NCBI RefSeq assembly: GCF_018977255.1
Contig: NW_024704742.1
Location: forward strand, 87,732,001-87,796,000
Direction of reading: 5' to 3'
Length of the DNA stretch: 64,000 nucleotides
From: Callorhinchus milii
Lineage: Eukaryota
Shown in pieces: positions 11,501 through 57,905 of the stretch (its first letter is position 1; each line of letters starts with the position of its first letter). Position numbers and translations under genes: made by a program. Under the pieces are notes generated by a model. That model had not been told where the DNA came from, searched no databases, and saw only the letters and a program-made list of their open reading frames with translations.

Positions 11501-11623
11501 GGTGATAAATTATAATGTGTGGATGAATTTGTTATGTCAATATCAAGAGTGGGAAATTGAACCAAGATTTATTTAAATTAACAGCAATATATGAGAAAGT
11601 ATGACTTTCAGTCTGTTAGAGTA

Positions 11624-11800
11624 TTAATAATAATAATCCTTGCATTTAATATAGCACTTTTCACGTCTAGACGTCTCAAAGTGCTTCATAAAATAGACTG
11701 TAAAGTGAATTGACTGTATATTTGTGGGCGAAACGCGGCAGCCAATTCCGCACAGCAGTGTCCCACAAACAGTCGTGGATTGAAATGACCAATTTTTTTT
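11624..11800 (-). mobile_element. tRNA-derived SINE, 3' part
   Basis: aataatccttgcattt tail plus family body. Confidence 0.8.
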
Positions 11801-12393
11801 AATACTTTTGTATTGACATTGAATGTATCATATTTCTATATAAACAGGCACATCCTTACGTTCATATAGACCTGATTTTCATTTTGCTCAGGAAATGCTC
11901 TGTAAATGCATTTATAGAACAACCAGCTGATAATATTCAGGCGGATAAAGACTCAAAACTTTCATCAGTTCCACTTACTTTGCAATATCTTAAGTTCAAC
12001 CAACATTGTAAATTGAAAAGAAATCACAAGAGATCACTTGTATGTAGAAAGTCCCTCCACTTATTTGATCTCATCTTTCCAAAATACCCATCTTGTTTTC
12101 CTCCCATCACAGCATCAAGTTGTACATCATTGGAGTCAGTCTCTTTCGGTGAACCTTCAACCATAAGCATTGTTAAAAAAAAAAATAAACACCCCATTGC
12201 AATCTGCAGTGAAAATGAACTGACCAACAATGAACACAGTAATCGTATCAGGTACTCAGCCTTCTGTGGACGGTCTGCAAGCAGTAATGTAGGTGACCTG
12301 ACTGATAGGCGTTCACCATGCAGTTATTTAACAAGGTAATTGAGTTGGTATGTTCACACCGGCAGCTAGTTGTGCTATGATTGCTTACACTGG

Positions 12394-12436
12394 TATAAAA
12401 TCGCGTTGCTGCTGCAGCTGGCTGTAACTCTCAGTT
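12394..12436 (+). promoter_or_regulatory. Candidate TATA box and Inr-like motif of gene B
   Basis: TATAAAA at 12394-12400, TCAGTT at 12431-12436, about 100 bp upstream of ATG 12500. Confidence 0.5.
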
Positions 12437-12499
12437 CAATGAAAAGGGATCTCGACAAGTAAGCAGATTTAGGACATCTGCTTCCATCAGAGCTGTGAA

Positions 12500-12569
12500 A
12501 TGATACCTTTTCGAGTCCCTTTGCTATTCTTGTTGGCTGCATGTTTATATTTCAACAACTGCGTGTACG
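12500..12569 (+). CDS. Gene B exon 1: signal peptide [24 protein letters not shown]
   Basis: ATG, hydrophobic core, phase-1 donor G|GTAAGT. Confidence 0.85.
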
Positions 12570-15500
12570 GTAAGTGACTTTCTTAATCCTGGGCTCGTGT
12601 GCAAACTGCTTCACTTGGATTCTCTTATGTTAATGTGAGGGTTTTTTTTGAGCAATAAAAATTGCTCAGCGAGAATGCACAATGATTTGCACCTTAAAGT
12701 GATGGATCTATTTGGAGCTGCCAATAAATATGCATTGGATTCCGCGAGCTCAACACGTATCAAACAATAGGTTTGTTTTGTGTAAGACTCTTAGGTACAT
12801 GCGGTAAAGTGCATGGTCTAACTGCTAACATGACTTGCTGCAATTATCCATTCAATGAAAGATTTCAACACCGAGACCTAATGTGTTAAATATTGCATGA
12901 ATCGCATAATCTGGGTCATTCAATTAGAGCAACCTAGCTCCAAGCCTGCATTGTGTCCACTTCAATAAATTGTTCTCATTGTACGTGGACAGTTTGTATT
13001 GCACGTTGTTCTGCATAATTCAAATAGAAAAAAAATAAATGCACGTATTGCAAGCTTTTTAAATGCGGTTCCAGTATCCTTCTGACACCATCTCTTGTTT
13101 CTTTCCTCCCTTTTCTTCCACCCCTATTCTTTAACAATATCAGTTGGATTTCGAAATAGATTTCCACTATAGCACTGAGTAGGAGCTGTACTCTTGTGAA
13201 GCTGGAGCTGATAGTTATATGATAGTTAGGAATGCAGAGCTATTGAATACTTTGTATTCAGCAAAATATTTCTTAAAAAAATGTAAGTGTGGAAAACTAT
13301 GCTCCCAAGGATATCTTTAAGCTAAACAATAAATTGAAGTGTGTATTACTTATATCTGTCCCTCTTTACATCTAACTTTAACTAAAGTCTGCTTTTTGGT
13401 AGGGTGTAAACTGAAGCATCAAATGAAACTGTTGCTTTTCTGCTCTTAATCCTGCTAATGACTTCTTTTCATTCGCAGGGTCTTGTGACATAACTCAGTT
13501 TCAGTGCAGAAGTGGACACTGCATCGCTTTACAGTGGAGATGTGATGGAGATGATGACTGTACTGATGGGAGTGATGAAAGTTTATGTGGTGAGTTGTTG
13601 GATTCTTAATTCCTCACACTGCACCATCTCTATTCTTTGATTCCTGTTAGCTTTGGCCCTCTTTCTAGTGAAACATGTCATTTAAGTTCCGTTCTTAACT
13701 GCTGTTATCCCTTTGCCAATGAAATAGCCGCTTGCATACAATGTAGATTATAACAAGTGCAGTATTTCTCTGTTGTTGTGTTTCATTATATACAGAAGAA
13801 TATTAACTATTTGAATCCTTAACAAATTCTAGTGTCGAGTAGTGAATGACTTCCTTTCCTAAAGGTAGTTAAGGCTATGGAGTTCAGTTATTCAACAGCA
13901 ATGCTAAACTTGTCAGCCAGAAGTACACTGTAACCCTATTGCTTTTTGATTAAACTATGGCTCCTGTAACAATTTTGGAATATGTGTTCTCTATTCCTCT
14001 ATTGACCTGTACCAGGGGTGTCAAACATGCAGTCGCTGACAGCCCGTGAGGTGATGTTTAGCAGCCCACACCATTAGTTTCTAAAATCGCATTGCATGAG
14101 TGACATTCTCATTAAGTCATTGCCAGTTCACAGTGTTAGTAAGAATAGCCAATTAGAGTGCTCATGTATACATAATAACTGCGCACACAACTGCATTGAG
14201 TAGAATTGTGAAGTCGTATTACAACTTTCTTTTACTTAAGTACAGTATTATGCAACAACAAAATTACATTTATAGAGCATCTTTCACGTTGGGAGGACAT
14301 CCCAAAGCACTGAAAAGTCAGGTGTCGGGGCCCGAGTATGGGGGAGGGGTGGTGTAAGGGTGAGGGAAGGCAGAGAGGTGGGAGGGAGACCAAAGGCACG
14401 GTCAAAGAGAAGGGTCTTGAGACCGGCCTTGAAGGAGGCAAGGGAGGAAGCGAGGCGAAGGGACCGTGGAATGGAGTTCCAGAGTGTGGGGGCAGAGAGG
14501 CTGAAAGCCCGGCCACTGATGGTCGTGCGGGAGACATGGAGCAGGCCGGAGCCTGATGAGCGGAGGGAGCGGGCAGGTTGGTAGGGAGTCAGCAGGTCAG
14601 AGAGGTAGGAGGGGGCAAGGTATGGATGGCCTTAAAGATGAGGACGAGGTTCTTGAACTCAATCCTCTGGGGGATGGGAGCCAGTGGAGTCAGGAGAGTG
14701 GGAGTGATGGGATCGCGGAGCCTAGTGCGTGAGAGTACATGAGCTGCAACTTTATTGTGGTTCAGCCCACCAAGTGAATAGTGACTTAAATGACACTTGA
14801 GGCCAGATGAGTTTGAAACTCTTGTCCTAGACTTGTATATAAAGATGTGGTGCCTCTCGCTGAGCTTAAGATGATGCTGGACACGGTGGGTGTTGGGAGG
14901 AGGGAAGGTGACTAAGAATGGTTCAGGAAGTAGATTTGAATGGGAGTTCCGGTCACTGCAGTGTTGGACTAGATTGATTTTAATGTGGTACTTGAACCCA
15001 TTGCTTTCAGACCCCAGAGGTGAGTATGCTACCAACTGGTTCAAGATGACATTTCTTCCCCAGAATATTATGATTTGGCAAGATTGCCAAGATGTAGTGA
15101 TGATGATAATGAATAATAAATATTAATAATAATCCTTGCATTTGATATAACACATTATTACATTGTTGAGACATCTCAAAGTGCTTCACAGAATATGTTG
15201 TGAAGTGGATTGACTGTATTTTTGTGGGCAAAATGCCCAGTTGTACTGGCAAGTTGACAGGGAGCTGAGCATAACACTAGCTGATGCAGTAAATGTTTTG
15301 CTGGGAAATTTACCAAGCCCTAAATCTAGAACACCTGATGGGTTGAACGACCTCCTGTTTCCTATCTTCCTAAGCGAAGAAACTGGATGTTTTTAAAGTT
15401 GAGAGCCAAGGGGTGTGGAGGGAAGTTCAACTTTACATCCAACTATCTCTAATCTAACATGGGTGTGCATGCCAATGAGAACAAATGTTGGCAATTTTAG

Positions 15501-18500
15501 GTACTTTTTGGGAGGAGGGGAATTAGTTTTGCGTATGTAAGAATTTAGATGCTTGCAGTTGATGTACAATAATGCTTCTGCCCACCAACTTTTTTTTAAA
15601 AAAGTGAGTATTAGTCTAGTATCGTATGTAGTGACTTCACCCTACAAAAGTTGCATTTTGTTTTAGATGCAGGTGTCCTTATTGAATGAACTTTAGTGGC
15701 TTAATAAGCTTGGAGTACAGCTGCTAGTGTAATTCAAAGGGGATTGTAAGGATGGAAATCCCATCAAATGACTTCAAAAAGTCCAGTGTAAGAAGACTGT
15801 CTTTGATGGTTGTGTTCCTCATATTAAACTGATAGATTAAGATCACCTGCATGAATCTTAAAATATATTCTCCTGTTTACTCAGCTAAGACTACTTGCGG
15901 ACCATCTGACTTTGTGTGCCACAATGGAAAATGCCTCCCTCTTAAGTGGGTGTGTGATGGTACATCGGACTGTGAAGATGGATCTGATGAAAGTCTGCAA
16001 GTGTGTCGTAAGTATTTTGGGGTAGAAATGAGACAACAACAAATTGCATTTATAGAGCAACTTTCACATCGGGAGACTAGTCCAAGGCCCTGAACAGTGA
16101 AGGTTTGCACCCTAGCTGGGGATTGGAATCTAGAGGGGTGGAGGGCAAAAGGGATGGAAAGGTGACTAAAGGCATAGTCAAAGAGGAAGGTCTTGAGATG
16201 GGCCTTGGATGGAGGCAGAGGGGCACTAGGATGGAGTTCCAGAGGGTAGGGGCAGAAAGGCTGAAGGCCTGACTGCCAATGGTGGAGTTGGCACAGTGGG
16301 AGATGTGGAGCAGACAAGTGTCTACCGAGGACAGGGAGCTGATGGGTTGGTAAAGAACATGTGTGTGTAACACATTTCTTGTGTCCTTTCCTTAGGTTTC
16401 CCACCTAGTCCTAGTACTTCTAATGGCATTTTTGCTTATTTTACATTTTTGGCCAACCTCCTCATGCTAGTTCACTTGTAGCATGGTTGACTCATGGTAT
16501 CTCTGAAGTTCAGTTCACTTGTTACACTTCTAGCTTCTGTGTATTCTGTGCACAACCTGTGCTGAATAAGTATTTTTATTGCATGCTTCATTATAATGTG
16601 GGGTCTAAGTTTACTCCTTGGGTTAGCACCTGCCAGATAAGTTCCCCTGTTGCGATTCACTTGTGGTGCACTGACCACAGCCAAATCTCACTCATAATTT
16701 AGGGACTCTTAACGGAAGATTTGAGATCCTAGCAACAGCTATGCCTTCAGCCTGCTATTGCTTGGGATTGGTATTGCAGTACTTCTGATCTGAGGAGTTT
16801 CATCTGCCCTCACAAAGAGGAAGTGGAGATGTGCACAACCTGTGCTGAATAAGTATTTTTGTCAACTCAAGGGTTAAGGAAAGACATTGATTTTGTTTTC
16901 TTCTTCCCCAGACAGTAAAACTTGTCCAGCCAATGAAATGAGCTGTGGCCCAAGATCTCTTCATTGTATTCCCATTTTGTGGAAATGTGATGGAAGAAAG
17001 GACTGTGATGATGGCAGTGATGAGATTAATTGTGGTACGTTTTAGTTTGGCAACTATCCTAGACAATTTTCAAGGAAGGGAGTTAAAAATAAATTGTCAG
17101 TTCCCCTTAAGCCCCACAAAATATACAGTCAATTCACTTTACAGTATATTCTGTGAAGTGCTTTGAGACATCTTGAAGATGTAATAAGGTACTATATCAA
17201 ATGCTGTTATTATTTTTAAAAATTATGTAATGCCGCATAAGCCATACAGACCTAAGGTTCAAGTTTTGGCCAGATTCTTTCTAAATCTTATAAATCTGAT
17301 TACAAATTGAGTTAAAGAGAAAATGTGATTAAGTTGCACAAAAAAATGACTTAAACTATTTTAGGCTCCAGGCTTAATATTTTTCTCTGAGAAACTCCAT
17401 ACATTGCACCCATATTTACTGGTGAAGATCTTCACACCAAAGTACATAGTGTGGCATTTGTAATCCAGCTGTGCATTCAATGCAAATGTCAATACTATTG
17501 TACATGAGAAAAATCTATAAAAGCTCAATGTTAATTATCCTTGCATTTGATATAGCATCTTTACATAGAAACAGGAGTAGGCCAATCAGACCCCTGTTTT
17601 TCCCCCATTCTATAAGATCGTGGCTGATCTGTACCTCGAGTCTAATTACCCTCCCTAACCCGGTATCCCTTAATATCTCACTATCTAACCATCTAGGTCT
17701 TCAAAATATGAATGGATCCAGCATCTGCAGGCTTTTGGGAAAGAGAGTTCCAGATTTCCACTACGATTTGGGTGAAAAACTGCCTCCTAATTTCACTCCT
17801 AAATGGCCTAGCTCTAATTTTAAGATTATGCCCATTGTTCTGGATTCCCCTACCAGAGGAAATAGTTTCTCTGTATCTACACTTTCAAATCCCTTTTGAT
17901 AAATTGTTTGTCATAATATCTCAAAGTACTTCACAGACTATACTTTAAAATTGTAACTATTTTGTACCTTGTATCTAACAAGATTCTACCATCTCTCAGG
18001 TCAGATAACTTGCAGTCCCCTGGAGTTCACGTGCTCCAGTGGCCGGTGTGTTTCCAAGACCTTTGTCTGCAATGGGGAGGACGACTGTGGTGATGGAAGT
18101 GATGAACAAACCTGTCATTCATCTTCCTGTGGTCCACATGAGTTTCAGTGCAAGAATTCTGAGTGTATCCCCTTGAGCTGGGTGTGTGATAACAATGCCG
18201 ACTGCATGGACGAGTCTGATGAAACTGCAACAAGTTGTGGGCATACGCTGCCACCTCTCGTGGACTGTTCTTTTAATGAGATCCAGTGTGGTTCAGGCGA
18301 ATGTATCCATCGCCAGTGGTACTGCGATGGAGATGTGGACTGCAAAGATGGAAGCGATGAGAAACACTGTCGTAAGTTGATCAACTCTTCTTCCATTGTG
18401 GAGATTAATGTATTTCCTTTCAGTTCCCACTGACGAGAAATAAGTTAACATTAACAACAAAATTACATTTGTAAGGCACCTTTCACATGCCTTACAAGGA

Positions 18501-21500
18501 GTACATCCCAAGGCTGAACAGTAAGGGATGCAGACCCGAGTGTGGGGGGGCAGGATTGGGATGAGGGAGGCCAGAAGGGGTAGGAGAGCAGCTGAAGGCA
18601 CGGTTAAAAAGGAGGGTCTTGAGTCATGCCTTGAAGGAGGCAAGAGAGGGGGCAAGGCAAAGAGATTATGGGGTGGAGTTCCAAAGAGTGGGGACAGAGA
18701 AGCTGAAAGCTCGGCCGTGGATGGTAGGGTGGGTTAGGCTGGGGACCTGGACCAAGCCGGAATCTGCTGAGCGGAGGGTGTGGACAGGTTGTTTGAGGGT
18801 CAGTACATCAGATGTAGGACGGGCAAGACCATGGAAGGCCTTGAAAGTGACTGCTTGGAAATTAACTGGTTAATAAATAAACTTTCTTAATGTCTGTGAA
18901 AGCACACAAGTTCCTGACTTTATTTAGACTTGTGATAGGCTATCATGACCAAGCTGAGGCAAGAAAGTTTGTTTATGATACACATTCACCATCTATTGGG
19001 AATTCACACATATACACACAAACTATAACCTTTCGCATATTTGTAATACAAATATAATATTCCTACTCTTTAAAATTTCCATTTGAATTAATGGAAGAAT
19101 GGAAATTCTGATATAAGCTAAAATGATTACAAAGCCTTCAACGAGAAGGTGAACCACTCCATTAAGAATAACTATTGCAATCAAATGACTCTGGTCCTCC
19201 TCTAGAAATATTATTGCACCCTAATTCGCCTAGCACATTACTTAGAATAGGTCCATGCCAATTTTAATCTTAATTGTGATGCATTTAACTTTTAGCTCAG
19301 ACGTGTGGACCTGGTCACTTCAGGTGTAGTGATGGTAGCTGTATTCCTGAAAACAAGAAGTGCAATGGATATCAGGACTGCAGTGACGGCAGTGATGAGA
19401 ACTGCAACAATGGTAATGGCATAAATCAACAACTTGTGTTCATATAGCGCTCTTCACACAGGTAGGATCTCGAAGTGCTTAACAGTAGCATATCTTGATG
19501 CCTAGCCGGGAGGGGACATGACCAAAGGCACAGCCAAAGAGGAAAGTATCCAGGTGTGACTTGAAGATGGGCAAGATTGAGGCAAGGAGTTTCCAAGATT
19601 CAGATAATCTTGGATAAGTGTACATATGGGAATGTTCAACTGGTATCTGGCATATGAACACTTCACCTCACAGCTAGGACAGAACCTCAGTGTCTTGTTT
19701 GACTCCATTGTCCTTTTAAACCCCACATCCATGCTCTGACCCATTTAGCCTTTCCCCCATCCTCTCCATTACTTCTCCCCTAAGGTCACCAATACCTTTA
19801 TCCATGCTTTCAAATGTCCAGGCTAGACTAGGCCAACTCTCCGCTCACCGGACTTCCCAATTCTTACCTCCACAGGTTGCAGAGCATCCAGAAGTCTACA
19901 GCTCACCTCCTTTCCTGCACTAGGCTCACTGAGCCTAATCAATCATTTTCTCTTCAGCAGGCATAGAATGTACAGGACCAACTGACTTCAAATGTCAAAG
20001 TGGAGAATGTATACACTTTACCAAAGTGTGTAACCACCATCAGGACTGCAAAGATGGGAGTGATGAGCCCCTCAAAACCTGCGGTAATGCCTTTTTCTAA
20101 CATTGTTTGACTGAGACTTAATCCAGATTAAAATGTACACTGTTCACATGATATGGTATTTGCACCTGAGATGTATATTGCTTTCTGTTAATGCTTGAAG
20201 GGCGAATTGTTGTTCTGTCACTTCTGCTGTATGATTTCATTTCACTCATCAAAATGCTTCCATTGGATTCTGTCTAAAATCATGTACTGGGTTCCAATAT
20301 CCATCAACTAAATGTGATCGATGCCTTACTGTGTGAAACCCTATCCCACATCATTGAAGTTTCTTGCATCCAATTAGAGTAAAAAAAATGCTTCAAGGTA
20401 AAGGATGGTATATTTAAAGATCCAAGTCTTCTCTTTCAACTGACGCACAACTTTTACTTCATGAGTACATCAACTTCACGACTGACTTCAAAAAAGAAAT
20501 ATTTTTGGATGACTCTAAAATTAGTCTAAAAGGATGTCCTGATTCTGTAGTTCATGTTTCACAGCTGCCATCGGATAGCATTGTTCTGGTTCATATATGG
20601 AATGGAATTTTGCCTACAAAAGTCACTACATGAAATCACACAGCCAGAAGTGACAGAACAATAACTCACCCTTCAAGTAATAGACGCTTAAAAAATATAA
20701 TAATTTGCTCATTTAATCCACAACTGCTTGTTGGACACTGTTGTGCGCAATTGGCTACTGGTTTAGCCCACAAAATATACAGTCAATTCACCTTACAGTA
20801 TAATCTGTGAAGCGCTTTGAGATGTCTAGAGGACATGATAAGTTGCTATATCAAATGCTATTATTACACTTAATATAGTAAATCCTGTAAAGCTCTTTGA
20901 GACATCCTCCAAAGTAAAAGTTGGTATATCAGGTGTATCAAGTTTTTATGTAGCATTGGGGGTGGGGGGGTTCTGGGAGGGTTTGCTCCTTGTCATACAT
21001 TTGCTGTTCTGCCAAGCTGCCAACTAATGTATCTTCTCTAACCATCCTTGATCTGATAACTATTTTGCTCCAAGTATTGTTGTAAGCCTTGACAAGGCAT
21101 CAGATGTCTACCAAACAAACATTTCCATTTCACAATAGGCAGTTCATGTGTAAACACGATATTTGCTGCCATAAATGGCAGCCATGAAACTTCTAACTGC
21201 AGTGTTTCGTGATTCCACACACGCCTGTTTACCGAGCAGTAAGTAAGAACCCAGTTGTGAGTTGATTGATTGATGGATCACTTTCCAGGGGTAATAATCC
21301 CTCCAATAAAATGACGATAATTTGGTCACTCAATCCATGACTGTTAATGGGACACTGCTGTGCCCAATTGGCTGCTGTGTTTCGCGCACAAAGTATCTAG
21401 TCTTTATATTCTCTGAAGTGTTTTGAGACGCCTCAACAATGTGATAAGGCCCTATATCAAATGCAAGGATTATTATTTCAGAATATCCTTTAAATAATTT

Positions 21501-42500: not shown

Positions 42501-45500
42501 GATTGGCTGGACATGGGTCTAATTTTCAGGCCACTGATATTGTAATTGATGGTTGGAAGGCTTATTCTGGATGATATTTTCAGGATAAATGGAGACTTTC
42601 CCAATATCTCACTAACACCAGTGTAATGTTAAGGTTCTGTTGGAAACAATGTGGTAGCTCAAAGGTTTACTACAAGGTCCCAGTTGCCCCCCAGTGATTC
42701 CTATGTACAAACATTATCTATCTAAGACACCAGAGTTACAGGCAGCTAGGTTTGCAATCCTGCTCCCCTCTATGCCTCGCTCTGATTCCTGGCTATTAAG
42801 TGAGATGTCTCTCCACCATCCAATATAGCCAGACCACAGACTTGTTTGTCCTGTTCTGAGGGCATATGCTACAGAGCAGAGAACATTTGAACTAATCGTG
42901 CAAGGCTCGACAATCATCCAATGAAGAACACTTCATTGATGCCGGTAGGGACTGACTTAATTTATTTCCTACCTAGGAGGAAAAGAGCCCTACTTGATCT
43001 TCACTGATCACCATGACATCAGGAAAATAGGAGTCTACCACAAAGAATACATCACAATAGTTGAGCAGCAGAGAAGTGCTGTGGCACTAGATGCTGATGC
43101 TATAGAACAGAAAATCTTCTGGTCTGATGTGGGGAAGAAGGCAATTTTCAGGTAACTTAGAGGCATGAATTCAAAACTCGACTAAAGGCATGAAATCTCT
43201 CATGATCTTGAGGCTTAAGATTCTTTTCAAAATAATTTTCTATGATTCTGTAGTGATGGAAGTTTTGGAAGCTTTTCCAAACCAGAATAGATTAAGTTTA
43301 ACATTCTACAGATCATAAGATTTTTGTCTTACAAAGTTTTTGTTGTCTTAAAACAAAGCAATAGACTTTTCATGTATTTGCAGGTTCAGTCAATTAAAAA
43401 TTAGTTGTGCAAATCTGGCCACCCATTTGCCTTGCCAGAATTAGAATATGACCTGTACTACATGTCTTAATTTAGTCCTGATTGTTTGGATCTAAGTGGG
43501 TTATAGCTAAATTGTACTCATTAATTGTACTGTAACTTGTTCAGTTTTACTGTTTGTCTACAGCAAACCAAACATTAAAATAGTGAATGTTCATTATAAC
43601 TGATCAACTTTTTGTCTTGCCACTAACCTTGCAGTTTGTCCATGGATAAAACGAAAGCTGCAACTAATATTTCCAGAATTATCAAGGATGTTCAAATGCC
43701 TGTGGGAATTGCTGTAGACTGGGTCTACAAGCACATCTACTGGACTGATCGTGGCACTAAAACCATATCTGTGGCTACCTTCGATGGAACCAAAAGGACC
43801 ACTCTCTTTGACAAAGATCTGAGTGAACCTGATTCTATTGCAGTTGATCCAATAAATGGGTATTGTTAAATTAGCCTTACTGTGTTAAAAACAACAACTT
43901 GACCTGCATCTTCTAAATCATCCCAATGCTATATTTGGCATTTTTTAAAAATCTAATGCTATTAATTGGAAATCTCTAATCAGGTTAGCATCTTCTGCAT
44001 ACTAAGAGCCTAATACAATGTGCACATGGGCTGATTTCCAAACAAAGTACAATAAAATGAATGGAAGGCACTGCATATAGGAGGCAAATACTGTATTGAT
44101 GTGATAGATCATGGGGGCAGAGGGAGAAACAAAGATCTCAAGGTGTTGGTCAACATTATTCACCATGTTGATGCAGAAAGTAAACCAGATGCTGAAGTAT
44201 ATTGCCAAATCAGTTAAAATTCCTAAATACTTGAGCTACAATTTTCTGATTAGGTTGTACCTAGAGTGCCAGATATAGTCTGGTTGACTGAAGGGGATTG
44301 CCCAGATTCTAAAGGTGATACAGAAAAGTATAGTAATGCGACTTTCATAGCAGCAAATGAGGAATAATGAGTGTAGAGCAAACAACAGATAAAAGGGTTA
44401 GAGGTGAGGATCCTCTATTTTAGAGCTAAGAGTAGATGTATATCCCACAGACATGTTCACAAATATTTTTGATCAGCCGGGTGTCTGACACGTGCAGAAA
44501 TCCATCACCATACTTAAGAATATCCAAACCAAACTGACAATTCCATGCATCCCAAGCTACACATGGAAATCTCAGAGATAGATTGTTGGAATGCAATGCA
44601 CTCTCTCTCCCTGGAGGGAAGCATCCTGTAAACTTTCAAACTGCTACACTTTTTAAAGTGCCTCAAGATGGTTTCATGCACAGATAATTGTGCTCTTCAG
44701 ATCTGCTTTACTTGAGCATGTGTTCACGATTAAGCAGGATTTCTTAGTTGTGACTAGTGTTCTTTCCTTTTAAAGGTTCATGTACTGGTCAGATAAAGGT
44801 GAAGTGACAAAAATTGAAAAAGCAGGAATGAATGGTGTTGATCGCCAAATTCTAGTTAAAGGTACACCAAAGCCGAATGGTATTGCACTTGGTAAGTAAT
44901 ACTAATTCCGTGTGTACTAAAAAAGGGCACTTTGTCAGTCTGGTTTTATATCCATGCTATTCTTCTCAGATCTCGTAAAGAACCGCCTCTATTGGGTTGA
45001 TGTAAAGCTCCACACGTTGTTTAGTATAGACCTAAATGGTAAGGACAGAAGAACTGTACTGGAGTCACAGAAGCTACTTGCTTATCCTTCTGCTGTTGTA
45101 TTATTGGAGGTAATGTCTCAATTGTGTTCTGAAATATTAGCAGCAGGCTTGTCTGGTTGAAAATATAACCCAGTTCTTCTAATGAAGAATGTTTGCTTAT
45201 AGTCCCAAATCTTTGTATACAATGGATTATTTGAATGTGCCAACTGATTTAAGGCACAGTCAAAACTATTATCTTAAATTTAAGATAATTGGCAAAAGAA
45301 CCAGAGGAGATTTTTTTATATACGGAATTGTTTGGAGTCCTGCAGCTCAGTGGTTAGAGCACTCGCTTTGCAAGTGAGAGACCTGAGTTCAATTCCAGGC
45401 AGAGGGCGAAACCTTGGGCAAGTTTCCTTACTCCACACGCCTAATAATAATCCCTCCAAAAACCAAAAACAATAATAAATTGGTCATTTTCAATCTACGA

Positions 45501-48500
45501 CTGTTTGTGGGACATTGCTGTGCGCAATTGGCTACTGCGTTCGCCCACAAATATACAGTCAATTCACTTTACAGTGTGTTCTGTGAAGCGCTTTGGGACG
45601 TCCTCCGGATGTGAAAAGCGCTATATCAAATGCAAGGAATATTATTATATTATTACACCCTGGCATGAACTAACTGAAATGGTGGTGGAAATGGATTCAA
45701 TAACTTTCAAAAGGGAATTAGATAGGTACTTAAAGAAAAAAATTGCAAGCATTTGGGGAAAGAGCAGGGGAGTGGGGCTGATTGGGTAACTCTTCCAAAG
45801 AGCAGGCATGATGGGTCGAATGGCCTCCTTCTGTGCTGTATAATATTCTATGATCTATTAAATAGTTGTAGCTGATTTGTCAGATGAGGTATCACTTCTC
45901 CTTGCAAATAGGACAAGATATTCCATGAATTTGCCTCTTGTTCACAATGTCATGTCCAGTTTGGGTTCTCAATCCTGCCAAGTACAGTGGTGATGAAGTT
46001 GAAACTATTTACAATGTTTGGTGGAAAGGTTTGCCTGAAGCACTAGTGATTCATGGCTCTGCCTAGTGTAGTGCCCATCTTTTACAAGCTCAGGGCACTA
46101 GTTGAAGCACTTTTAGCCTCAGAACCCCTTGAATTAAGGACCCAATTCCTGATCACTGTAAAGATCCTTACAACACTGGAAGAGTTTTCTTCTTCAGCCA
46201 AGTGGCTTGTTGGTGCTCACTATTTAAGGGTAACCATGAAAAATGGTCACTTGGGTATAACCTGCTTAGTTCACCTCCAGACAAATTAAGTGCAATGAGT
46301 CGCTCCATACATCTATCTACTTGAATGAACTTTTAAAGCATGGGTGTTGAAGTTATGTAAACTGTTAGAGAATCTCTGTAAGAAACTATAGATGTAGTAG
46401 TAAAATTTGTATTTGCTCTAACAATTCTAGGATTATGTCTTCTGGGCTGATGGAATTAACAAAGCCATCTACAGAGCCAACAAATTCACAGGAGAATCTG
46501 TGGTCGTTTTGGCCTCTCATCTGAACAACCCTCAAGATATCATTGTTTATTCTGAGATTATTCAGCCAGCAGGTAAGCAATCTCTTGGCATGTAAATGGT
46601 GTTGCAGTAAAACTGTTCTGGTAATGTAGGTGAAAAGCTAAACATACAAGGTTAATGCTAACAAGGCTTATGTATGGCTGGTTACCAGAATCTGACTTTG
46701 ATCTGTATGAATAAACATGATTTGAGATTTATCTTGTTATGAAGGCATTTTTATTCCATACTTTGAAATTGAATAATATTGCTAAAACGTATTAGAGTTG
46801 GAGGTGGGCTGCACACCACACAGATCAGGAAAGTGGTGCAGCCTAACTCCCTCACCAAATACTGCTGTGACACACAGCAGTCTGGTGATCCTTTGAGTGG
46901 GGCTAATAAAAGTTCTTCCCTCCAACTCAATACACTTGAAGTAGACATTGTGCCAAGTGGCTGTGCATTGAAGCCATGCCAATGTTGTAGTAGCTTTAAG
47001 TCCTGTAGCTCAGTGGTTAGAGCACTTGCCCCACAAGCAAGAAACCTGGTTTTGATTCCCGGCACGGTGAAACGTTGGGCAAGTTTCCTTACTCCACACG
47101 CCTCTGTTTACCGAGCAGTAAGTGGGAACCCAGTTGATAGTCGATTGGCAGATCGCTTTTCCGGGGGGTAATAATTCCTTGAAAATACATTTTAAAATAA
47201 ATAAATAAAGTGTCACTCAATCAAAGGCTGTTTGTGGGATACTGCTGTGTGCAATTGGCTGCTGCTTTTGCCCACAAAATATTCACTTTACAGTATATTC
47301 TGTGAAGCACTTTGAGACAAATGCAAGGATTATTAACATAATAAAATGGGCAGGGGGAGGTCTCTAAAATGTATCTGGTATAAGTCATTAAGAGTTTTTA
47401 GGACACTTTGTTGACTTCTTCTAGGCAAAGACTGGTGCAACCAAAAGATCAAGGATGGAGGTTGTGAATACCTATGTCTTCCTGCTCCTCAAATTAACAG
47501 TCACTCGCCCAAATATATCTGTGCATGTCCATCAGAAATGGAACTCCAAGAGGATGAACAACACTGCAAAATAGGTACACAATCTTCTGAAACTATGATG
47601 CTCTAATACATGAGCCAGCATCAGCTTTTATCACACTAATACTTGATGGCTACAGTAGGAAGTCTCAAGAAATAGCTGGATAATTAAAGGTAGTCAATGG
47701 AGGATAGCTATAAACTCTTCAAAGTTTGAATCAAGCCCTCCAGGATCTATTTTAAGACCTTCGTAAGCTTAATGTGCAACAATATTAAACTTTTAACCGT
47801 GATGCCCAAATCAGAAGACTTCAATATCAGGGATTTAGACTGGTAAGTATCTATCTGACAGATTCAGTGTGCATAACTCTTGTGTAGGACCCAGAACTAA
47901 TGGACTAAAAGGAATGTTAATCAGTGTCTGGACTCAGCCACTTTAACCTGCTCCAGCTGTCCTGCAACTTGTTCCCTTTCACTCTGGTGGGATCTTTCTC
48001 TTGTACCATTTTACCAGGTACTCTTTTGGGAAAAAAAAACCCGCTAATGTAGGGCTCCAGCAATTCTTCCTAAGCCTAAATCCATTTAACTGGGTTGTTG
48101 CCATGAGTCCATCTCTAGACTTTGAACATTGCTCCTCACAGCAGATCTTTAAGTCTCTCGTCTATCATTTTACTGAGATCTGAGGTAATGCGTTGTAGTT
48201 ATACCCCTGTTTTGATGAATGCAGACCAATTGCCTATAAACTGCATTGATCAATTTTTGTCTTCATTTTTGGCTCAAAGCATGGTCAGAACCCTTCAGTC
48301 TTGCAAAGTAATGAGACAACCTGCTGTTAATGTAAAATGTTGTCTTCCCTTTTCTTTCCAGTAACTCAGTATAGAATAAGACCCTCTGCTTTACCTACAC
48401 TTGCTTCTAATGACTCCACAAAAGGCATCCGTTCCAGTCTGCAAACAGTTTTGCCAAGTTCTAAAGGTAATTAAATTTTGATTTGAATTTGTGCTCGACA

Positions 48501-50681
48501 TGGTGTGACTTGTATTTCAAGCTTCAACCAAACGTATAATTCTTATTGGATTTTGTTAGGTAAAATGTTACCTATATGAGCTAATAACTAGGATATGGAG
48601 AGAATCCTACTATAATAGCCTGCCAGGTTAAGAAATCTTGGAACCAACTTTGAATCTGCTGAGTTGTAGATGAGTTTCCCACATTGCGTTGGATAACTTT
48701 AGTAAATACCCAGTTTTCCAGACTAAGGTATGTGGAATTCAAGCCAAGCCGGCCTGGACCCAAAGCCTAAACTAAATTTCAGTGGCTGCATGTAGACTCC
48801 CACCAGCCCAGCGCTCCCTACGCACACCAATGCTCCACTAAGCAGCCTTTCAGATGGGGATATCGACTTAGACTCGGATTGTTTGAATCCCACAAACAGA
48901 AAACTGGCTTATTTGCTATTCTCTGCTTGTGGGACTCAAACAATTACAAGGCTGGTACCAGCATTTTTGACAAATGTCAATACCAGCATTGTAATTACAC
49001 TTAATCAGAAATTCCAGCTTGCCAGATCTCCTCTTTATTCTATTTTCTTTCCCCTCCTACCACCATCAGTCTGGTGAGCCTGGATTGGACTCTTTTGAAT
49101 TTCAAGCTAGATTGTAACCTTGATTCTTGACCCCATGATTCACTGAATGTTTTTGTGAACCTTTACTGTGTTTACTTTACTAAAACTTTACTATGAGATT
49201 CCTCCATGTTCAGAGCAGAACTGAAATAGGTCAATCAGGTGTTGGTACAAACAACAACAACAAACTTACATTTATAGAGCGCCTTTCACGTCGGAAGAAC
49301 ATCCCAAAGCGCTGAACAGTCAGGTGTCGGGGCCCGAGCATGGCGGGGGGGTGGTGTGAGGGAAGACAGAGAGGTGGGAGGGATACCAAAGGCACGGTCA
49401 AAGAAAAGGGTCTTGAGACCGGCCTTGAAGTGGAGTCCTGTAGCTCAGTGGTTAGAGCACTCACCTTGCAAGCGAGACACCTGGGTTCAATTCCAGGCAG
49501 GGCAAAACCTTGGGCAAGTTTCCTTACTCCACACGCCTAATAATAATCCCTCCAAAAAACCAATAATAAATTGGTCATTTTCAATCTGCGACTGTTTGTG
49601 GGACACTGCTGTGCGCAATTGGCTGCTGCGTTTCGCCCACAAATATACAGTCAATTCACTTTACAGCATATTCTGTGAAGCGCTTTGAGACGTCTAGAAG
49701 ATGTGAAAAGCGCTATATCGAATGCAAGGATTATTATTATTGAAGGTTGCAAAGGAGGAAGTGAGGCGAAGGGACCGTGGGATGGAGTTCCAGAGTGTGG
49801 GGGCAGAGAGGCTGAAAGCCCGGCCACCAATGGTAAGGCATGTCGGGTGGGAGACATGGAGCTGACCAGAGCCTGATGAACAGAGGGAGTGGGCAGGTTG
49901 GTAGGGAGTCAGCAGGTTAGAGAGGTAGGAGGGGGCAAGGCCATGGATGGCCTTAAAGGTGAGGATGAGGATCTTGAACTCAATCCTCTGGGGGATGGGG
50001 AGCCAGTGGAGTCGGGGGAGGGTGGGAGTGATGGGGTCACGGAGCCTGGTGAGAGTACACGAGCTGCAGAGTTTTGGATGATCTGCATCGTGTGAAGGGA
50101 AGAGTTCGGAAGGCCGATGAGGAAGGAGTTCCTGTAATCAAGCCTTGAGGTGACAAACTGCTGTCAACAATTCACCAAGTCTGGTTTATTGTTATTATTT
50201 ACTTGGTTTTGGCATTGGCTATCTTGACACTAGCTGCCCTTTAGAAATGTTTTTAATGAGGTTTTTCTTGCATAAGGTATTACTTTGTGGAAATGCTTTA
50301 CGTTTCCCTTAACTTTCAGATGTAAATTCAGGTACCTCTTACAAAGATGAGAAGCCTGGCAAAGGAGCTGCAGTTGGCTGGTTTATCCTTGCTATCCGTA
50401 AGTTGATAACTACTTTTGACTGTCTTAAACCATCTACCAAAATAGCTTAATCTTGTGGACATGTTAGTTCAGTAAGTGCTCATTGTACTTTGTGTTCTAC
50501 AAAGGTTCTTGACTTTGTTTAAGGGTGTTTCTAATATAGGGTAAAATATTAAGCCTCTCTGATTTTTCTTTCAGTGCTCTTGGCTGTAGCTTGTATAGCT
50601 GGTTACCTCAAATGGCAAGACTTGCAAAAGAAGAGCCTGCAGACAAATAGCTTTGAGAACCCATTGTTTCAGAATGAATAA
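12500..50681 (+). CDS. VLDLR: Gene B: VLDLR-like receptor with triplicated ectodomain (8+6+7 LA repeats, 9 EGF, 3 YWTD propellers, single TM); 43 exons, about 2165 aa
   Basis: Manual splicing of the exons listed below gives 6498 nt in one frame. Module 1 has the eight-LA (LR8) layout with a 372-bp three-LA exon. One signal peptide exon and one TM/tail only. Symbol denotes family; a derived paralog. Confidence 0.88.
13479..13589 (+). CDS. Gene B exon 2: LA1
   Basis: [35 protein letters not shown]. Confidence 0.92.
14252..14750 (-). mobile_element. L2-clade LINE 3' fragment
   Basis: [18 protein letters not shown]...IPQRIEFK; (caa)n tail; matches copy at 58565. Confidence 0.85.
15885..16007 (+). 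CDS. Gene B exon 3: LA2
   Basis: [37 protein letters not shown]. Confidence 0.92.
16033..16352 (-). mobile_element. L2-clade LINE 3' fragment
   Basis: [17 protein letters not shown]...[10 protein letters not shown]. Confidence 0.8.
16912..17034 (+). CDS. Gene B exon 4: LA3
   Basis: [37 protein letters not shown]. Confidence 0.92.
17565..17900 (-). mobile_element. CR1-like LINE 3' fragment
   Basis: catagaaacaggagtaggcc end and body recognised as CR1-type from memory; no search run. Confidence 0.6.
18000..18371 (+). CDS. Gene B exon 5: LA4-6
   Basis: 372 bp, three LA repeats; ORF 17969..18433. Confidence 0.93.
18448..18850 (-). mobile_element. L2-clade LINE 3' fragment
   Basis: Same 3' end as copies at 14252 and 58565. 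Confidence 0.8.
19296..19412 (+). CDS. Gene B exon 6: LA7
   Basis: [34 protein letters not shown]. Confidence 0.9.
19958..20083 (+). CDS. Gene B exon 7: LA8
   Basis: [44 protein letters not shown] tandem acceptor (alternative start 19961). Confidence 0.9.
21739..21858 (+). CDS. Gene B exon 8: EGF-A, module 1
   Basis: [16 protein letters not shown]...; 120 bp. Confidence 0.92.
21934..22059 (+). CDS. Gene B exon 9: EGF-B, module 1
   Basis: [15 protein letters not shown]...CKAV; 126 bp. Confidence 0.92.
22457..22628 (+). CDS. Gene B exon 10: propeller 1 start
   Basis: [18 protein letters not shown]...IFWADL; 172 bp; GC donor. Confidence 0.9.
22657..22833 (-). mobile_element. tRNA-derived SINE, 3' part
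   Basis: Family tail and body. Confidence 0.8.
23725..24160 (-). mobile_element. L2-clade LINE 3' fragment
   Basis: [28 protein letters not shown] in ORF 23729..24289. Confidence 0.85.
24494..24706 (+). CDS. Gene B exon 11: propeller 1
   Basis: [15 protein letters not shown]...AVDPLLG. Confidence 0.92.
25223..25341 (+). CDS. Gene B exon 12: propeller 1
   Basis: [20 protein letters not shown]...IQRPNGIAL; 119 bp. Confidence 0.92.
25419..25558 (+). CDS. Gene B exon 13: propeller 1
   Basis: [10 protein letters not shown]...[11 protein letters not shown]; 140 bp. Confidence 0.92.
26181..26319 (+). CDS. Gene B exon 14: propeller 1 end
   Basis: [21 protein letters not shown]...HELIQPS; 139 bp. 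Confidence 0.92.
26740..26886 (+). CDS. Gene B exon 15: EGF-C, module 1
   Basis: [23 protein letters not shown]...CRK. Confidence 0.92.
27599..27727 (+). CDS. Gene B exon 16: LA3-type repeat, start of module 2
   Basis: [37 protein letters not shown]. Confidence 0.9.
27814..28182 (+). CDS. Gene B exon 17: LA4-6, module 2
   Basis: 369 bp; ORF 27777..28190. Confidence 0.92.
28582..28704 (+). CDS. Gene B exon 18: LA7, module 2
   Basis: [35 protein letters not shown]. Confidence 0.9.
28785..28901 (+). CDS. Gene B exon 19: LA8, module 2
   Basis: [38 protein letters not shown]. Confidence 0.9.
28995..29142. mobile_element. Small Tc1/mariner (Tigger-like) MITE
   Basis: TA|CAGTAAAATTTGTATAA ... 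TTATGTGAGTTTTACTG|TA, imperfect TIRs with TA flanks; related copy from 6366. Confidence 0.6.
29932..30051 (+). CDS. Gene B exon 20: EGF-A, module 2
   Basis: [15 protein letters not shown]...; 120 bp. Confidence 0.92.
30147..30272 (+). CDS. Gene B exon 21: EGF-B, module 2
   Basis: [15 protein letters not shown]...CKAV; 126 bp; GC donor. Confidence 0.9.
30801..30972 (+). CDS. Gene B exon 22: propeller 2 start
   Basis: [18 protein letters not shown]...IFWIDL; 172 bp. Confidence 0.92.
31210..31434 (+). CDS. Gene B exon 23: propeller 2
   Basis: [15 protein letters not shown]...AVDPLSG; 225 bp. Confidence 0.92.
31875..32196 (-). mobile_element. Full-length tRNA-derived SINE
   Basis: Head with A box (tagctcagtgg) and B box (ggttcaattcc), (att)n tail. 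Confidence 0.9.
32474..32592 (+). CDS. Gene B exon 24: propeller 2
   Basis: [20 protein letters not shown]...IQRPNGITL; 119 bp. Confidence 0.92.
32678..32817 (+). CDS. Gene B exon 25: propeller 2
   Basis: [12 protein letters not shown]...[11 protein letters not shown]; 140 bp. Confidence 0.92.
33813..33954 (+). CDS. Gene B exon 26: propeller 2 end
   Basis: [21 protein letters not shown]...; 142 bp. Confidence 0.92.
34143..34428 (-). mobile_element. tRNA-derived SINE
   Basis: Same family, head and tail present. Confidence 0.88.
35166..35500 (-). mobile_element. L2-clade LINE 3' fragment, degenerate
   Basis: caacaaaattacatt tail plus family 3' body. Confidence 0.7.
35636..35785 (+). CDS. 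Gene B exon 27: EGF-C, module 2
   Basis: [20 protein letters not shown]...CKI; 150 bp. Confidence 0.92.
   Translation, partial: AISCAMRIYRMEAVNSCASQLLSSLFIPHNMSVCVLLTWNLSRIDIAVK
37379..37501 (+). CDS. Gene B exon 28: LA2-type repeat, start of module 3
   Basis: [37 protein letters not shown]. Confidence 0.9.
38015..38364 (+). mobile_element. tRNA-derived SINE, diverged longer variant
   Basis: Degenerate head, internal ctctgtttacccagtagtaagtaggaacccag segment, caaggattattatt tail. Confidence 0.75.
38445..38567 (+). CDS. Gene B exon 29: LA3, module 3
   Basis: [37 protein letters not shown]. Confidence 0.92.
39295..39666 (+). CDS. Gene B exon 30: LA4-6, module 3
   Basis: 372 bp, three LA repeats. 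Confidence 0.92.
40655..40777 (+). CDS. Gene B exon 31: LA7, module 3
   Basis: [35 protein letters not shown]. Confidence 0.9.
40990..41112 (+). CDS. Gene B exon 32: LA8, module 3
   Basis: [38 protein letters not shown]. Confidence 0.9.
41810..41929 (+). CDS. Gene B exon 33: EGF-A, module 3
   Basis: [16 protein letters not shown]...; 120 bp; GC donor. Confidence 0.9.
42006..42131 (+). CDS. Gene B exon 34: EGF-B, module 3
   Basis: [15 protein letters not shown]...CKAV; 126 bp. Confidence 0.92.
42977..43151 (+). CDS. Gene B exon 35: propeller 3 start
   Basis: [18 protein letters not shown]...IFWSDV; TAGGAG tandem acceptor (alternative start 42980). Confidence 0.9.
43635..43859 (+). CDS. Gene B exon 36: propeller 3
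   Basis: [17 protein letters not shown]...AVDPING; 225 bp. Confidence 0.92.
44776..44891 (+). CDS. Gene B exon 37: propeller 3
   Basis: [20 protein letters not shown]...TPKPNGIAL; 116 bp. Confidence 0.92.
44970..45109 (+). CDS. Gene B exon 38: propeller 3
   Basis: [10 protein letters not shown]...[11 protein letters not shown]; 140 bp. Confidence 0.92.
45334..45654 (+). mobile_element. Full-length tRNA-derived SINE nested in a CR1 remnant
   Basis: ggagtcctgcagctcagtggttagagc head to attattat tail. Confidence 0.9.
45660..45860 (+). mobile_element. CR1-like LINE 3' end (5' part at about 45280-45330)
   Basis: [11 protein letters not shown]-terminus; gatgggtcgaatggcctccttctgtgctgta...ttctatga tail. 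Confidence 0.7.
46431..46572 (+). CDS. Gene B exon 39: propeller 3 end
   Basis: [21 protein letters not shown]...; 142 bp. Confidence 0.92.
46999..47335 (+). mobile_element. tRNA-derived SINE, longer variant
   Basis: gtcctgtagctcagtggttagagc head; caaggattatt tail. Confidence 0.85.
47425..47574 (+). CDS. Gene B exon 40: EGF-C, module 3
   Basis: [34 protein letters not shown]...CKI. Confidence 0.92.
48362..48466 (+). CDS. Gene B exon 41: Ser/Thr-rich stalk
   Basis: [35 protein letters not shown]; 105 bp, phase 1-1. Confidence 0.8.
49249..50155 (-). mobile_element. L2-clade LINE 3' fragment interrupted by a SINE
   Basis: Colinear with the 14252 copy on both sides of 49431-49740. Confidence 0.85.
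49431..49740 (+). mobile_element. Full-length tRNA-derived SINE with TTGAAG target-site duplication
   Basis: ttgaag at 49425-49430 and 49740-49745. Confidence 0.9.
50320..50397 (+). CDS. Gene B exon 42: juxtamembrane and first half of TM
   Basis: [28 protein letters not shown] / GTAAGT. Confidence 0.87.
50575..50681 (+). CDS. Gene B exon 43: TM end and tail with FENPLF
   Basis: [35 protein letters not shown]. Confidence 0.88.
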
Positions 50682-50695: not shown

Positions 50696-51007
50696 AATGA
50701 TTTTACACTAAATTTGGTGCCTTGGTTAATGGTAATCATTATGTAGATAGGAGGGGAAGATCCTAGAAGATAGTTTATTTCAGGTTTTGAACCGTTTCTG
50801 CATCCCACTGGGGTGAGGGGAACGCATTTAAAGTAAATGTGCAAATATATTTCAGTTGATCTTAGTCTACTCATGGTCATGTATTTCATTTATTCAACAT
50901 GCATGTTGCATGGTAGACTTTACAGGGGTGAAGTGGAGATCTAATACTTGATAAAGGATTTACAAAACCCCTTAAACTGGTTGCATTTTCAGGGTAGCTT
51001 TTTATGA

Positions 51008-51348
51008 TGATAATCCTTGCATTTGGTATAGCGCCTTATCAAATCTTCAAGAAGTTTCAAAGTGCTTCACAATATACTGTAAAATGAATTGACTGTATAT
51101 TTTGTGGGTGAAATGCAGCAGCCAATTGCACACAGCAGTGTCCCACAAACAGACGTGGATTAAATGACCATTTTTTTTGAAGGGATTGTTACCCCCGGAA
51201 AAGCCAATCGACTGACAACCGGGTTCCTATTTACTGCTCTCTTACTGTAATCAGGGGCAGATGGAGTAAGGAAACTTGCCAAATGTTTCACCCTGCCTGG
51301 AAATCAAACCCAGGTCCTCTCTTGCTTGCAAGGCAAGTGCTCTAACCA
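51008..51348 (-). mobile_element. tRNA-derived SINE
   Basis: Tail plus most of head (gtgctctaacca). Confidence 0.82.
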
Positions 51349-57789: not shown

Positions 57790-57905
57790 TGGACACTGGA
57801 GTACCTCTGACAAAAGGTCATCGACCTGAAACGTTAACTCATTTTCCTCTCTTCATAGATGCTGCCTATCCTGCTGCGTGTTCCCAGTGACTTCTGTTTT
57901 TATTG
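57790..57905 (+). repeat. Retroelement terminal fragment (Penelope-like, from memory)
   Basis: ctgacaaaaggtcatcgacctgaaacgttaac...agatgctgcc...cctgctg motif, which I recall as common in chondrichthyan repeats; class unverified. Confidence 0.4.

Follow-up and report, generated by a model that had tools for sequence, protein, structure and literature searches.

A probable VLDLRc2 of the chimaera Callorhinchus milii, with the VLDLR ectodomain cassette triplicated in one gene

INTRODUCTION

Cartilaginous fishes carry three tandem VLDLR genes (Ohishi et al. 2023, Genome Biol Evol 15:evad028; PMC10015161). According to the main text of that paper, the ectodomain of VLDLRc1 is repeated as three units in VLDLRc2 and as five in VLDLRc3, the catshark c2 and c3 genes are expressed in ovary only, and the repetition of the ectodomain may allow binding to several vitellogenins simultaneously; its introduction gives VLDLR/LR8 as the vitellogenin receptor of oviparous vertebrates. 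The subject here is a gene at positions 12500-50681 (+) of a 64,000-nucleotide (nt) stretch of Callorhinchus milii DNA (G000:C1:87732001-87796000, + strand; contig NW_024704742.1), referred to as the window. The gene is very probably the VLDLRc2 of this chimaera, that is, a tandem VLDLR paralogue of cartilaginous fishes in which the ectodomain cassette is triplicated within one gene and whose product would act as a multivalent endocytic receptor. Positions are window coordinates unless preceded by G000:C1.

The three-cassette architecture of VLDLRc2 is already known: it was predicted in databases earlier and described in print in 2023. The supplement of PMC10015161 lists XP_042202743.1 as C. 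milii VLDLRc2, and along its entire length, residues 1-2164, the protein modelled here aligns collinearly with the protein named 'very low density lipoprotein receptor c2 [Scyliorhinus torazame]' (63% identity), so that architecture, name, species and proposed function are all in print. The initial annotation of this DNA, made from its letters alone, was thus right to caution that chondrichthyan VLDLR duplicates with repeated ectodomains might have been reported. In a full-text literature search for VLDLRc2/VLDLRc3, and for VLDLR together with catshark and vitellogenin, only PMC10015161 treated these genes; PMC11772764, in the text available, does no more than cite work on catshark vitellogenin. 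The terms NPxY, cytoplasmic, intracellular and concerted are absent from the main text of PMC10015161, where 'gene conversion' is used for VTG only. With the multiplication of the ectodomain in print since 2023, the window adds base-resolution confirmation rather than discovery.

RESULTS

An exon chain built from splice-site scores and reading frame, with GC donors allowed, joins 43 exons into a frame of 2164 codons and a stop, with no internal stops (Table 1). The initial annotation had arrived at 43 exons in one open frame of about 2165 amino acids (aa), with the same cassette three times over, VLDLR-type exon sizes and a single membrane anchor, and in each of these respects the chain and the searches described below agree with it. 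Exon 1 is followed by 39 internal exons and by three exons that close the frame. All LA and EGF exons are phase 1-1, and both cassette junctions (26886>27599 and 35785>37379) are in phase 1 at all four ends; EGF-C of cassettes 1 and 2 joins the next LA exon directly (26740-26886 > 27599-27727 and 35636-35785 > 37379-37501), to the base as annotated. From EGF-A through EGF-C the cassette exons measure 120/126/172-175/213-225/116-119/140/139-142/147-150 nt, close to the 120/126/172/228/119/140/142/153 of the LDLR/VLDLR reference genes. Three introns have GC donors (..AG/gcaagt), at 22628/22629, 30272/30273 and 41929/41930, and the donor at 30272 is backed by spliced contigs.

Pfam searches with the 43 exon translations returned 21 PF00057 (LA) stretches arranged as 8+6+7, the counts per exon being 1+1+1+3+1+1, 1+3+1+1 and 1+1+3+1+1, together with three EGF-type exons and four PF00058 (LDL-receptor class B) exons per cassette. 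Behind each LA cluster come EGF-A, EGF-B, the YWTD propeller and EGF-C, three times and in VLDLR order, the open frames that encode these peptides lying between 13.4 and 50.7 kb. The six cysteines and an acidic calcium-cage motif of the type D-C-x-D-x-(S/G/H/W)-D-E are kept in all 21 LA repeats. No Pfam family was matched by seven of the 43 exons: the stalk exon, both transmembrane (TM)/tail exons, exon 1 and, in all three cassettes, the first of the YWTD exons. The stalk exon (Ser/Thr at 11 of 34 residues) is weakly similar to the stalks of both neighbouring genes and is present at 100% in the database proteins P0125 and P0353; the single hydrophobic stretch that follows the stalk is predicted to be the TM helix.

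The sequence between the cassettes contains no sign of a gene boundary of the kinds looked for. In tblastn searches with the 43 exon peptides and the canonical VLDLR protein, no LA, EGF, YWTD, stalk, TM or signal-exon homologue was found in 26887-27598 or 35786-37378, as the initial annotation had held for stalk, TM and signal exons, and AATAAA is absent from both of these introns. TM/tail exons were found by tblastn at three places only in 256 kb (window 4863-4964, 50577-50678 and 107693-107785), and the same 256 kb have one signal exon for each gene. Two hydrophobic open stretches in the intron between cassettes 1 and 2 (26962-27030 and 27540-27600) resemble nothing in the family; these and a third stretch (50158-50240) were rejected as exons for want of stalk or TM-exon homology and of any counterpart in P0125.

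The model agrees at 2163 of its 2164 residues with P0125, which its source describes as an LRP-like protein predicted for Callorhinchus milii. The sole difference, T869M, is a C>T at 27643 that runs X2, X3 and X6 also show (see below), the Met form being that of P0125. The exon 1 peptide is identical to the N terminus of P0125 and is similar to the beginning of shark c1 and c2 (MIPFRV...). The RefSeq protein XP_042202743.1 (P0353, 2155 aa) lies in the 90% cluster of P0125 and aligns with the same exons except that its first exon is another one. At least five other species have a predicted protein with the same three cassettes, and of the seven c2-type rows examined six have the 8+6+7 layout, the exception being a Narcine model with 8+4+6 by simple motif count. 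The layout is thus conserved from chimaera to sharks and rays, a point that goes beyond the main text of PMC10015161. Two further database proteins considered as c2 were set aside: P0121 has three cassettes that belong with c3 positions 3-5 in the tree and a tail of c3 type, and P0001 turned out to be a partial c3. UniRef A0A4W3HY94 (P0355, 2411 aa) is a chimera in which cassettes A4-A5 of the upstream neighbour (window -21801 to -10573) are joined to the VLDLRc2 gene from 26181, the fifth YWTD exon of cassette 1, onward; database models at the VLDLR locus are therefore unreliable.

Splicing was followed in contigs mapped on 24000-43900 from runs X1 and X2 (study P1) and X3 (study P2), which are RNA-like by guess, and from X6, which is of genomic type. 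X1-X3 contain 0.23-0.34 of the sampled words of a stretch that is about 31% exonic by the model. Among the 15 joints listed (with 1689 others unlisted) are 12 of the 25 model introns in this interval, with GT..AG ends and in one case GC..AG; these 12 were seen in contigs of X1, X2 and X3 and in none of X6. The joint between cassettes 2 and 3, 35785>37379 (listed as 35782>37376, cut +3, GT..AG), occurs in one contig each of X1, X2 and X3 and in none of X6, and a 3032-nt X1 contig begins in YWTD exon 2 of cassette 2 and reaches past the corresponding exon of cassette 3. For the junction between cassettes 1 and 2 the evidence is indirect. In a 1306-nt X1 contig, position 27813 falls at record position 773 and so has 772 nt upstream of it, of which the LA exon covers just 129 nt, and the contig depths of 48.2 (X1), 41.5 (X2) and 256.6 (X3) recur at both 26807 and 27643; the upstream length and the equal depths on both sides imply the 26886>27599 splice. 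Splicing across the module junctions, a point that the initial annotation proposed to check, is thus seen directly at the second junction and through contig span and depth at the first. X6 contigs run unbroken over both inter-cassette introns (24661-27132, 27113-28253 and 35461-38106), in agreement with the assembly. The joints 31981>34709, 38151>38946 and 38364>42216 were rejected as model introns on account of their non-GT..AG ends, their sides of 21-23 letters and the presence of two of the three in X6 as well, and are taken as interspersed-repeat joins. The gene is transcribed and spliced as one mRNA.

The relationships of the cassettes were examined in a tree of 54 rows and 603 columns, from LA4 to EGF-C, that covered the three genes of C. 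milii, shark and ray c1, c2 and c3, and bony-vertebrate VLDLR. It was rooted on bony-vertebrate VLDLR by assumption, with LDLR and LRP8 outgroups not in the tree. The cassettes of the VLDLRc2 gene are denoted B1-B3 and those of the c3-like gene upstream of it A1-A6. The multi-cassette units form one clade (support 100/98) that is sister to the chondrichthyan single-cassette VLDLR within a chondrichthyan clade (100/100), and elasmobranch cassettes sort by position into eight groups, each supported at 100/99-100. B1-B3 are only about 60-70% identical to each other. The closest relatives of the gene are all VLDLR, and the best LRP1/LRP2 matches are only about 30-40% identical to the c3/c2 query, which sustains the separation from the LRP1 and megalin lineages put forward in the initial annotation. 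Three of the features by which PMC10015161 defines VLDLRc2 are found here: three ectodomain units in one protein, a tandem position beside VLDLRc1 and VLDLRc3, and, with the root assumed, cassettes that fall among chondrichthyan VLDLR and outside bony-vertebrate VLDLR.

The tail of the VLDLRc2 protein is 23 residues long, carries SFENPLF and ends ...FENPLFQNE, three residues past the motif. All 13 c2/c3-type tails examined, from chimaera, sharks and rays and including both C. milii genes, end 3-10 residues after FENPxF; the six c1 and bony-vertebrate VLDLR tails examined have FDNPVY and about 38 further residues. The truncated FENPxF tail is thus common to c2 and c3, which again goes beyond the main text of PMC10015161.

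Along the + strand the c3-like gene, the VLDLRc2 gene and the canonical VLDLR follow one another within 87.66-87.84 Mb of C1, and the exon with three LA repeats matches the genome DNA at 12 sites, each of them on the + strand at 87.666-87.828 Mb of C1. The canonical VLDLR (c1), about 95-100% identical to P0018 (886 aa), lies outside the window, about 35 kb downstream, at 85477-107866 (+). The last eight exons of the c3-like gene are within the window (Table 1), and its start is upstream at G000:C1:87668594. Chained with a phase constraint, this gene is predicted to comprise 78 exons and to encode 4060 aa with no internal stops; its six cassettes would carry 6+6+6+7+6+7 LA repeats, and its signal exon reads MIPLRLATLLLLAVCLSKSID. 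Shark c3 proteins have five cassettes. The RefSeq protein for the gene, XP_042202724.1 (P0005), is only 824 aa long and begins in a decayed partial LA cluster upstream; the supplement of PMC10015161 lists it as C. milii VLDLRc3, and also contains a fragment of rabbitfish c3. On this model the c3-like neighbour appears to be badly under-annotated (six cassettes and 4060 aa against 824 aa in RefSeq), and this too goes beyond the main text of PMC10015161. With introns counted, the DNA of A1 and that of A2 agree at 91-99% across about 11-12 kb (G000:C1 about 87669700-87692700), which would reflect a recent cassette duplication unless it is an assembly artefact. The decayed LA cluster occupies G000:C1:87664743-87667854, upstream of the c3-like signal exon, and its three-LA exon is split by an insert resembling a short interspersed element (SINE).

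Downstream of the VLDLRc2 gene, 56716-59971 (-) has a GC content of 0.50 and a GC skew of 0.26, and contains open frames with reverse transcriptase-like motifs of retrotransposons lacking long terminal repeats (..YADDTQLY..). Tail fragments related to this retrotransposon, along with SINE-like pieces, recur in many introns of the VLDLRc2 gene. Tandem Repeats Finder found no repeats in 51000-64000.

Table 1. Exons of the VLDLRc2 gene and of the 3' end of the c3-like gene in the window (chain, splice/frame exon chain; contigs, spliced contigs)
Feature	Position	Strand	Evidence and remarks
VLDLRc2 gene
Exon 1: ATG, signal-peptide-like, phase-1 donor	12500..12569	+	sole match of scan for ATG + hydrophobic + phase-1 donor in 5000-13430
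Cassette 1 LA1	13479..13589	+	chain; PF00057 E 3.6e-14
Cassette 1 LA2	15885..16007	+	chain; PF00057
Cassette 1 LA3	16912..17034	+	chain; PF00057
Cassette 1 LA4-6 (three LA repeats)	18000..18371	+	chain; PF00057 in 3 stretches
Cassette 1 LA7	19296..19412	+	chain; Pfam
Cassette 1 LA8	19961..20083	+	chain; Pfam
Cassette 1 EGF-A	21739..21858	+	chain; PF14670/PF07645
Cassette 1 EGF-B	21934..22059	+	chain; Pfam
Cassette 1 YWTD exon 1, GC donor CAG/gcaagt	22457..22628	+	chain; 81% identical to c1; alone without Pfam match
Cassette 1 YWTD exon 2	24494..24706	+	chain; PF00058
Cassette 1 YWTD exon 3	25223..25341	+	chain; Pfam
Cassette 1 YWTD exon 4	25419..25558	+	chain; Pfam
Cassette 1 YWTD exon 5	26181..26319	+	chain; Pfam
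Cassette 1 EGF-C, phase-1 donor straight to cassette 2	26740..26886	+	chain; Pfam
Cassette 2 first LA exon (LA3 type), holds 27643 site	27599..27727	+	chain; Pfam
Cassette 2 three-LA exon	27814..28182	+	chain; Pfam; joint 28182>28582 in X1, X2, X3
Cassette 2 LA (LA7 type)	28582..28704	+	chain; Pfam; contig joints
Cassette 2 LA (LA8 type)	28785..28901	+	chain; Pfam; joint 28901>29932
Cassette 2 EGF-A	29932..30051	+	chain; Pfam; contigs
Cassette 2 EGF-B, GC donor	30147..30272	+	chain; Pfam; joint listed 30270>30799, 3 ambiguous letters, fits 30272>30801 GC..AG
Cassette 2 YWTD exon 1	30801..30972	+	chain; contigs
Cassette 2 YWTD exon 2	31210..31434	+	chain; Pfam
Cassette 2 YWTD exon 3	32474..32592	+	chain; Pfam; contigs
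Cassette 2 YWTD exon 4	32678..32817	+	chain; Pfam; contigs
Cassette 2 YWTD exon 5	33813..33954	+	chain; Pfam; contigs
Cassette 2 EGF-C, phase-1 donor straight to cassette 3	35636..35785	+	chain; Pfam; joint 35785>37379
Cassette 3 LA (LA2 type)	37379..37501	+	chain; Pfam; contigs
Cassette 3 LA (LA3 type)	38445..38567	+	chain; Pfam; contigs
Cassette 3 three-LA exon	39295..39666	+	chain; Pfam; contigs
Cassette 3 LA (LA7 type)	40655..40777	+	chain; Pfam
Cassette 3 LA (LA8 type)	40990..41112	+	chain; Pfam
Cassette 3 EGF-A, GC donor	41810..41929	+	chain; Pfam
Cassette 3 EGF-B	42006..42131	+	chain; Pfam
Cassette 3 YWTD exon 1	42977..43151	+	chain; joined to next exon in one X2 contig
Cassette 3 YWTD exon 2	43635..43859	+	chain; Pfam; contigs
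Cassette 3 YWTD exon 3	44776..44891	+	chain; Pfam
Cassette 3 YWTD exon 4	44970..45109	+	chain; Pfam
Cassette 3 YWTD exon 5	46431..46572	+	chain; Pfam
Cassette 3 EGF-C	47425..47574	+	chain; Pfam
Stalk exon, Ser/Thr-rich, phase 1-1	48362..48466	+	top-scoring phase-1 exon in 47600-50560
Juxtamembrane and first half of TM helix	50320..50397	+	chain; P0125 alignment
Last exon: remainder of TM helix, tail, stop 50679-50681	50575..50681	+	chain
c3-like gene
YWTD exons	552-773, 1732-1850, 1935-2074, 2443-2584	+	frame-consistent chain
EGF-C	2696-2839	+	frame-consistent chain
Stalk	4012-4146	+	frame-consistent chain
TM	4632-4691	+	frame-consistent chain
Last exon	4861-4982	+	frame-consistent chain

DISCUSSION

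The product of the VLDLRc2 gene would be a multivalent endocytic lipoprotein receptor. Each LA cluster may bind basic residues of its ligand in calcium-caged acidic pockets, as elsewhere in the family, and each propeller stands behind its own LA cluster, as in LDLR and VLDLR, where it drives ligand release at endosomal pH. The FxNPxF tail would recruit clathrin adaptors, and it is too short to accommodate the distal VLDLR tail. In the NPVY signal of LDLR, Tyr can be exchanged for Phe, and on that account it is probable that endocytosis has been kept and that distal tail functions have been lost. By analogy with the catshark, the most likely ligand would be vitellogenin in growing oocytes, and such a role in yolk uptake would match both the suggestion made in PMC10015161 and the ovary-only expression of the catshark genes given there.

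Several observations weigh against reading the gene simply as the chimaera counterpart of elasmobranch VLDLRc2 with an endocytic role. The first exon of the current RefSeq model, P0353, is different (MPQRHSQLACPPG...) and does not look like a signal peptide. None of the runs X1-X5 is recorded as RNA, their RNA nature being only guessed, and 26886>27599 is not among the 15 joints listed. The tail has Phe in place of the Tyr of the FxNPxY internalisation motif, as do all c2/c3-type tails examined, and is truncated, so that endocytosis is only inferred. Over 54 positions of the TM helix and tail, identity is 46-48% to c3-type and 39-43% to c2-type proteins; full-length collinearity, the 8+6+7 layout, the c2-like N terminus and the accession listed in the supplement of PMC10015161 all favour c2. 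In the cassette tree, B1 and B2 group with A1-A5 (93/95, not starred) instead of with elasmobranch c2, and B3 is unplaced; forcing B1 together with c2 cassette 1 costs 33.9 log-likelihood units (p 0.0295 in the approximately unbiased, AU, test). Cassette-by-cassette orthology to elasmobranch c2 is accordingly tentative, a matter that goes beyond the main text of PMC10015161.

It would be scarcely credible that three adjacent single-cassette genes, or an artefact of assembly, have been merged here by prediction. Predictors do make chimeras at this locus, as A0A4W3HY94 attests, but spliced contigs bridge cassettes 2 and 3 in three runs from two studies, the genomic contigs of X6 cross the inter-cassette introns, only three TM/tail exons lie in the 256 kb, where each gene has one signal exon, and three-cassette proteins are predicted in other species too. 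A collapsed or expanded repeat is also contradicted by the low identity among B1-B3. A more substantial alternative, somewhat improbable though far from negligible, accepts the architecture as shared with elasmobranch VLDLRc2 and holds that the cassettes are not one-to-one orthologues, having been homogenised with those of the c3-like neighbour by gene conversion or unequal crossing-over, or partly re-amplified after chimaeras and elasmobranchs split. The grouping of B1 and B2 with A1-A5 favours it, since this group recurs in both halves of the alignment (support in the SH-like approximate likelihood ratio test, SH-aLRT, of 80 and 85-87) and contrasts with the eight clean position groups of elasmobranchs. 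All nine C. milii cassettes as one clade are not rejected (p-AU 0.273), the pairing of B1 with c2 cassette 1 is rejected by a narrow margin, and the similarity of A1 and A2 points to cassette duplication that is still ongoing at the locus. Further, a 176-nt patch at 31263-31438, in YWTD exon 2 of B2, agrees in DNA at 94.9% with the matching A4 exon (G000:C1:87711250-87711425), far above the similarity typical of the cassettes, and may be a local gene conversion. On the other side, the AU test rejects neither B2 with c2 cassette 2 (p 0.165) nor B3 with c2 cassette 3 (p 0.317), the backbone branches are short (0.01-0.03) and drawn open, and names were given to the groups only once the tree had been seen. 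In the LA half of the alignment B3 is weakly attached to the final cassettes of c2 and c3. Taken as a whole, the AU tests neither establish nor exclude one-to-one orthology of the cassettes. The 8+6+7 layout, with the same extra LA types opening cassettes 2 and 3, is shared with sharks and rays, an argument for a triplication older than the split of chimaeras from elasmobranchs; in that case the pattern of the cassette tree reflects later homogenisation.

There is also an unlikely reading in which the receptor is real but its main job is something other than yolk uptake, such as scavenging lipoproteins or protease inhibitors, or acting as a non-internalising or decoy receptor. The multi-cluster relatives LRP1 and LRP2 are broad scavengers, and the tail lacks the NPxY Tyr and the roughly 38 distal residues kept by c1 and bony-vertebrate VLDLR. 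Against this stand the conservation of FENPxF in every c2/c3-type tail examined, which points to selection on an adaptor-binding motif, and, from PMC10015161, the restriction of catshark c2 and c3 expression to the ovary and the role of VLDLR/LR8 as the vitellogenin receptor of oviparous vertebrates.

The VLDLRc2 gene provides a case in which a whole receptor ectodomain has been multiplied by duplication of a phase-1 exon cassette. Such duplication is a route to multi-cluster receptors inside the VLDLR lineage, parallel to that of LRP1/LRP2, in animals with very large yolky eggs. Taking the locus as a whole, it is possible, if not quite an even chance, that the cassettes of C. milii c2 and c3 have exchanged sequence or been re-amplified since the elasmobranch split, that the c3-like gene gained its sixth cassette by an 11-12 kb duplication to yield a 78-exon, 4060-aa receptor with 38 LA repeats, and that the shared FENPxF tail marks a dedicated bulk-uptake class uncoupled from VLDLR signalling. 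For specialists, the useful additions are likely to be the exact 43-exon map with its RNA-supported junctions and three GC-AG introns, the conserved layout, the truncated tail, the under-annotated c3 neighbour and the question of concerted evolution among cassettes.

The nearest described system is elasmobranch VLDLRc2. The catshark protein (P0124, 2165 aa) and the C. milii protein are almost equal in length and alike in their three units, their 8+6+7 LA repeats and their collinearity, and elasmobranch VLDLRc2 shares with the C. milii gene the tandem locus with c1 and c3 and the short FENPxF tail. It differs in that the C. milii cassettes are not paired with its own position by position in trees, and in that the C. 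milii TM helix and tail are marginally nearer c3. VLDLRc3 (catshark P0235, 3423 aa; Mustelus P0233; Rhincodon P0234) and the upstream gene have the same type of cassette, the same truncated FENPxF tail and the same cassette clade, but they are unlike VLDLRc2 in their five cassettes in sharks, or six in C. milii, and in a first LA cluster of six repeats instead of eight. The canonical VLDLR/LR8 (c1, P0018) has the exon plan and domain order of VLDLRc2, whose cassettes are 66-71% identical to it and whose cassette 1 keeps all eight of its LA repeats; in contrast to VLDLRc2, it has a single cassette and a full FDNPVY tail. LRP1, LRP2/megalin and the arthropod vitellogenin receptors likewise alternate LA clusters with EGF/YWTD units on one TM anchor and follow the same broad principle of a multivalent endocytic receptor, although they are separate lineages with clusters of unequal make-up that are not whole VLDLR cassettes. 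Teleost Lrp13 is an LDLR-family protein proposed as a second vitellogenin receptor in fish ovaries.

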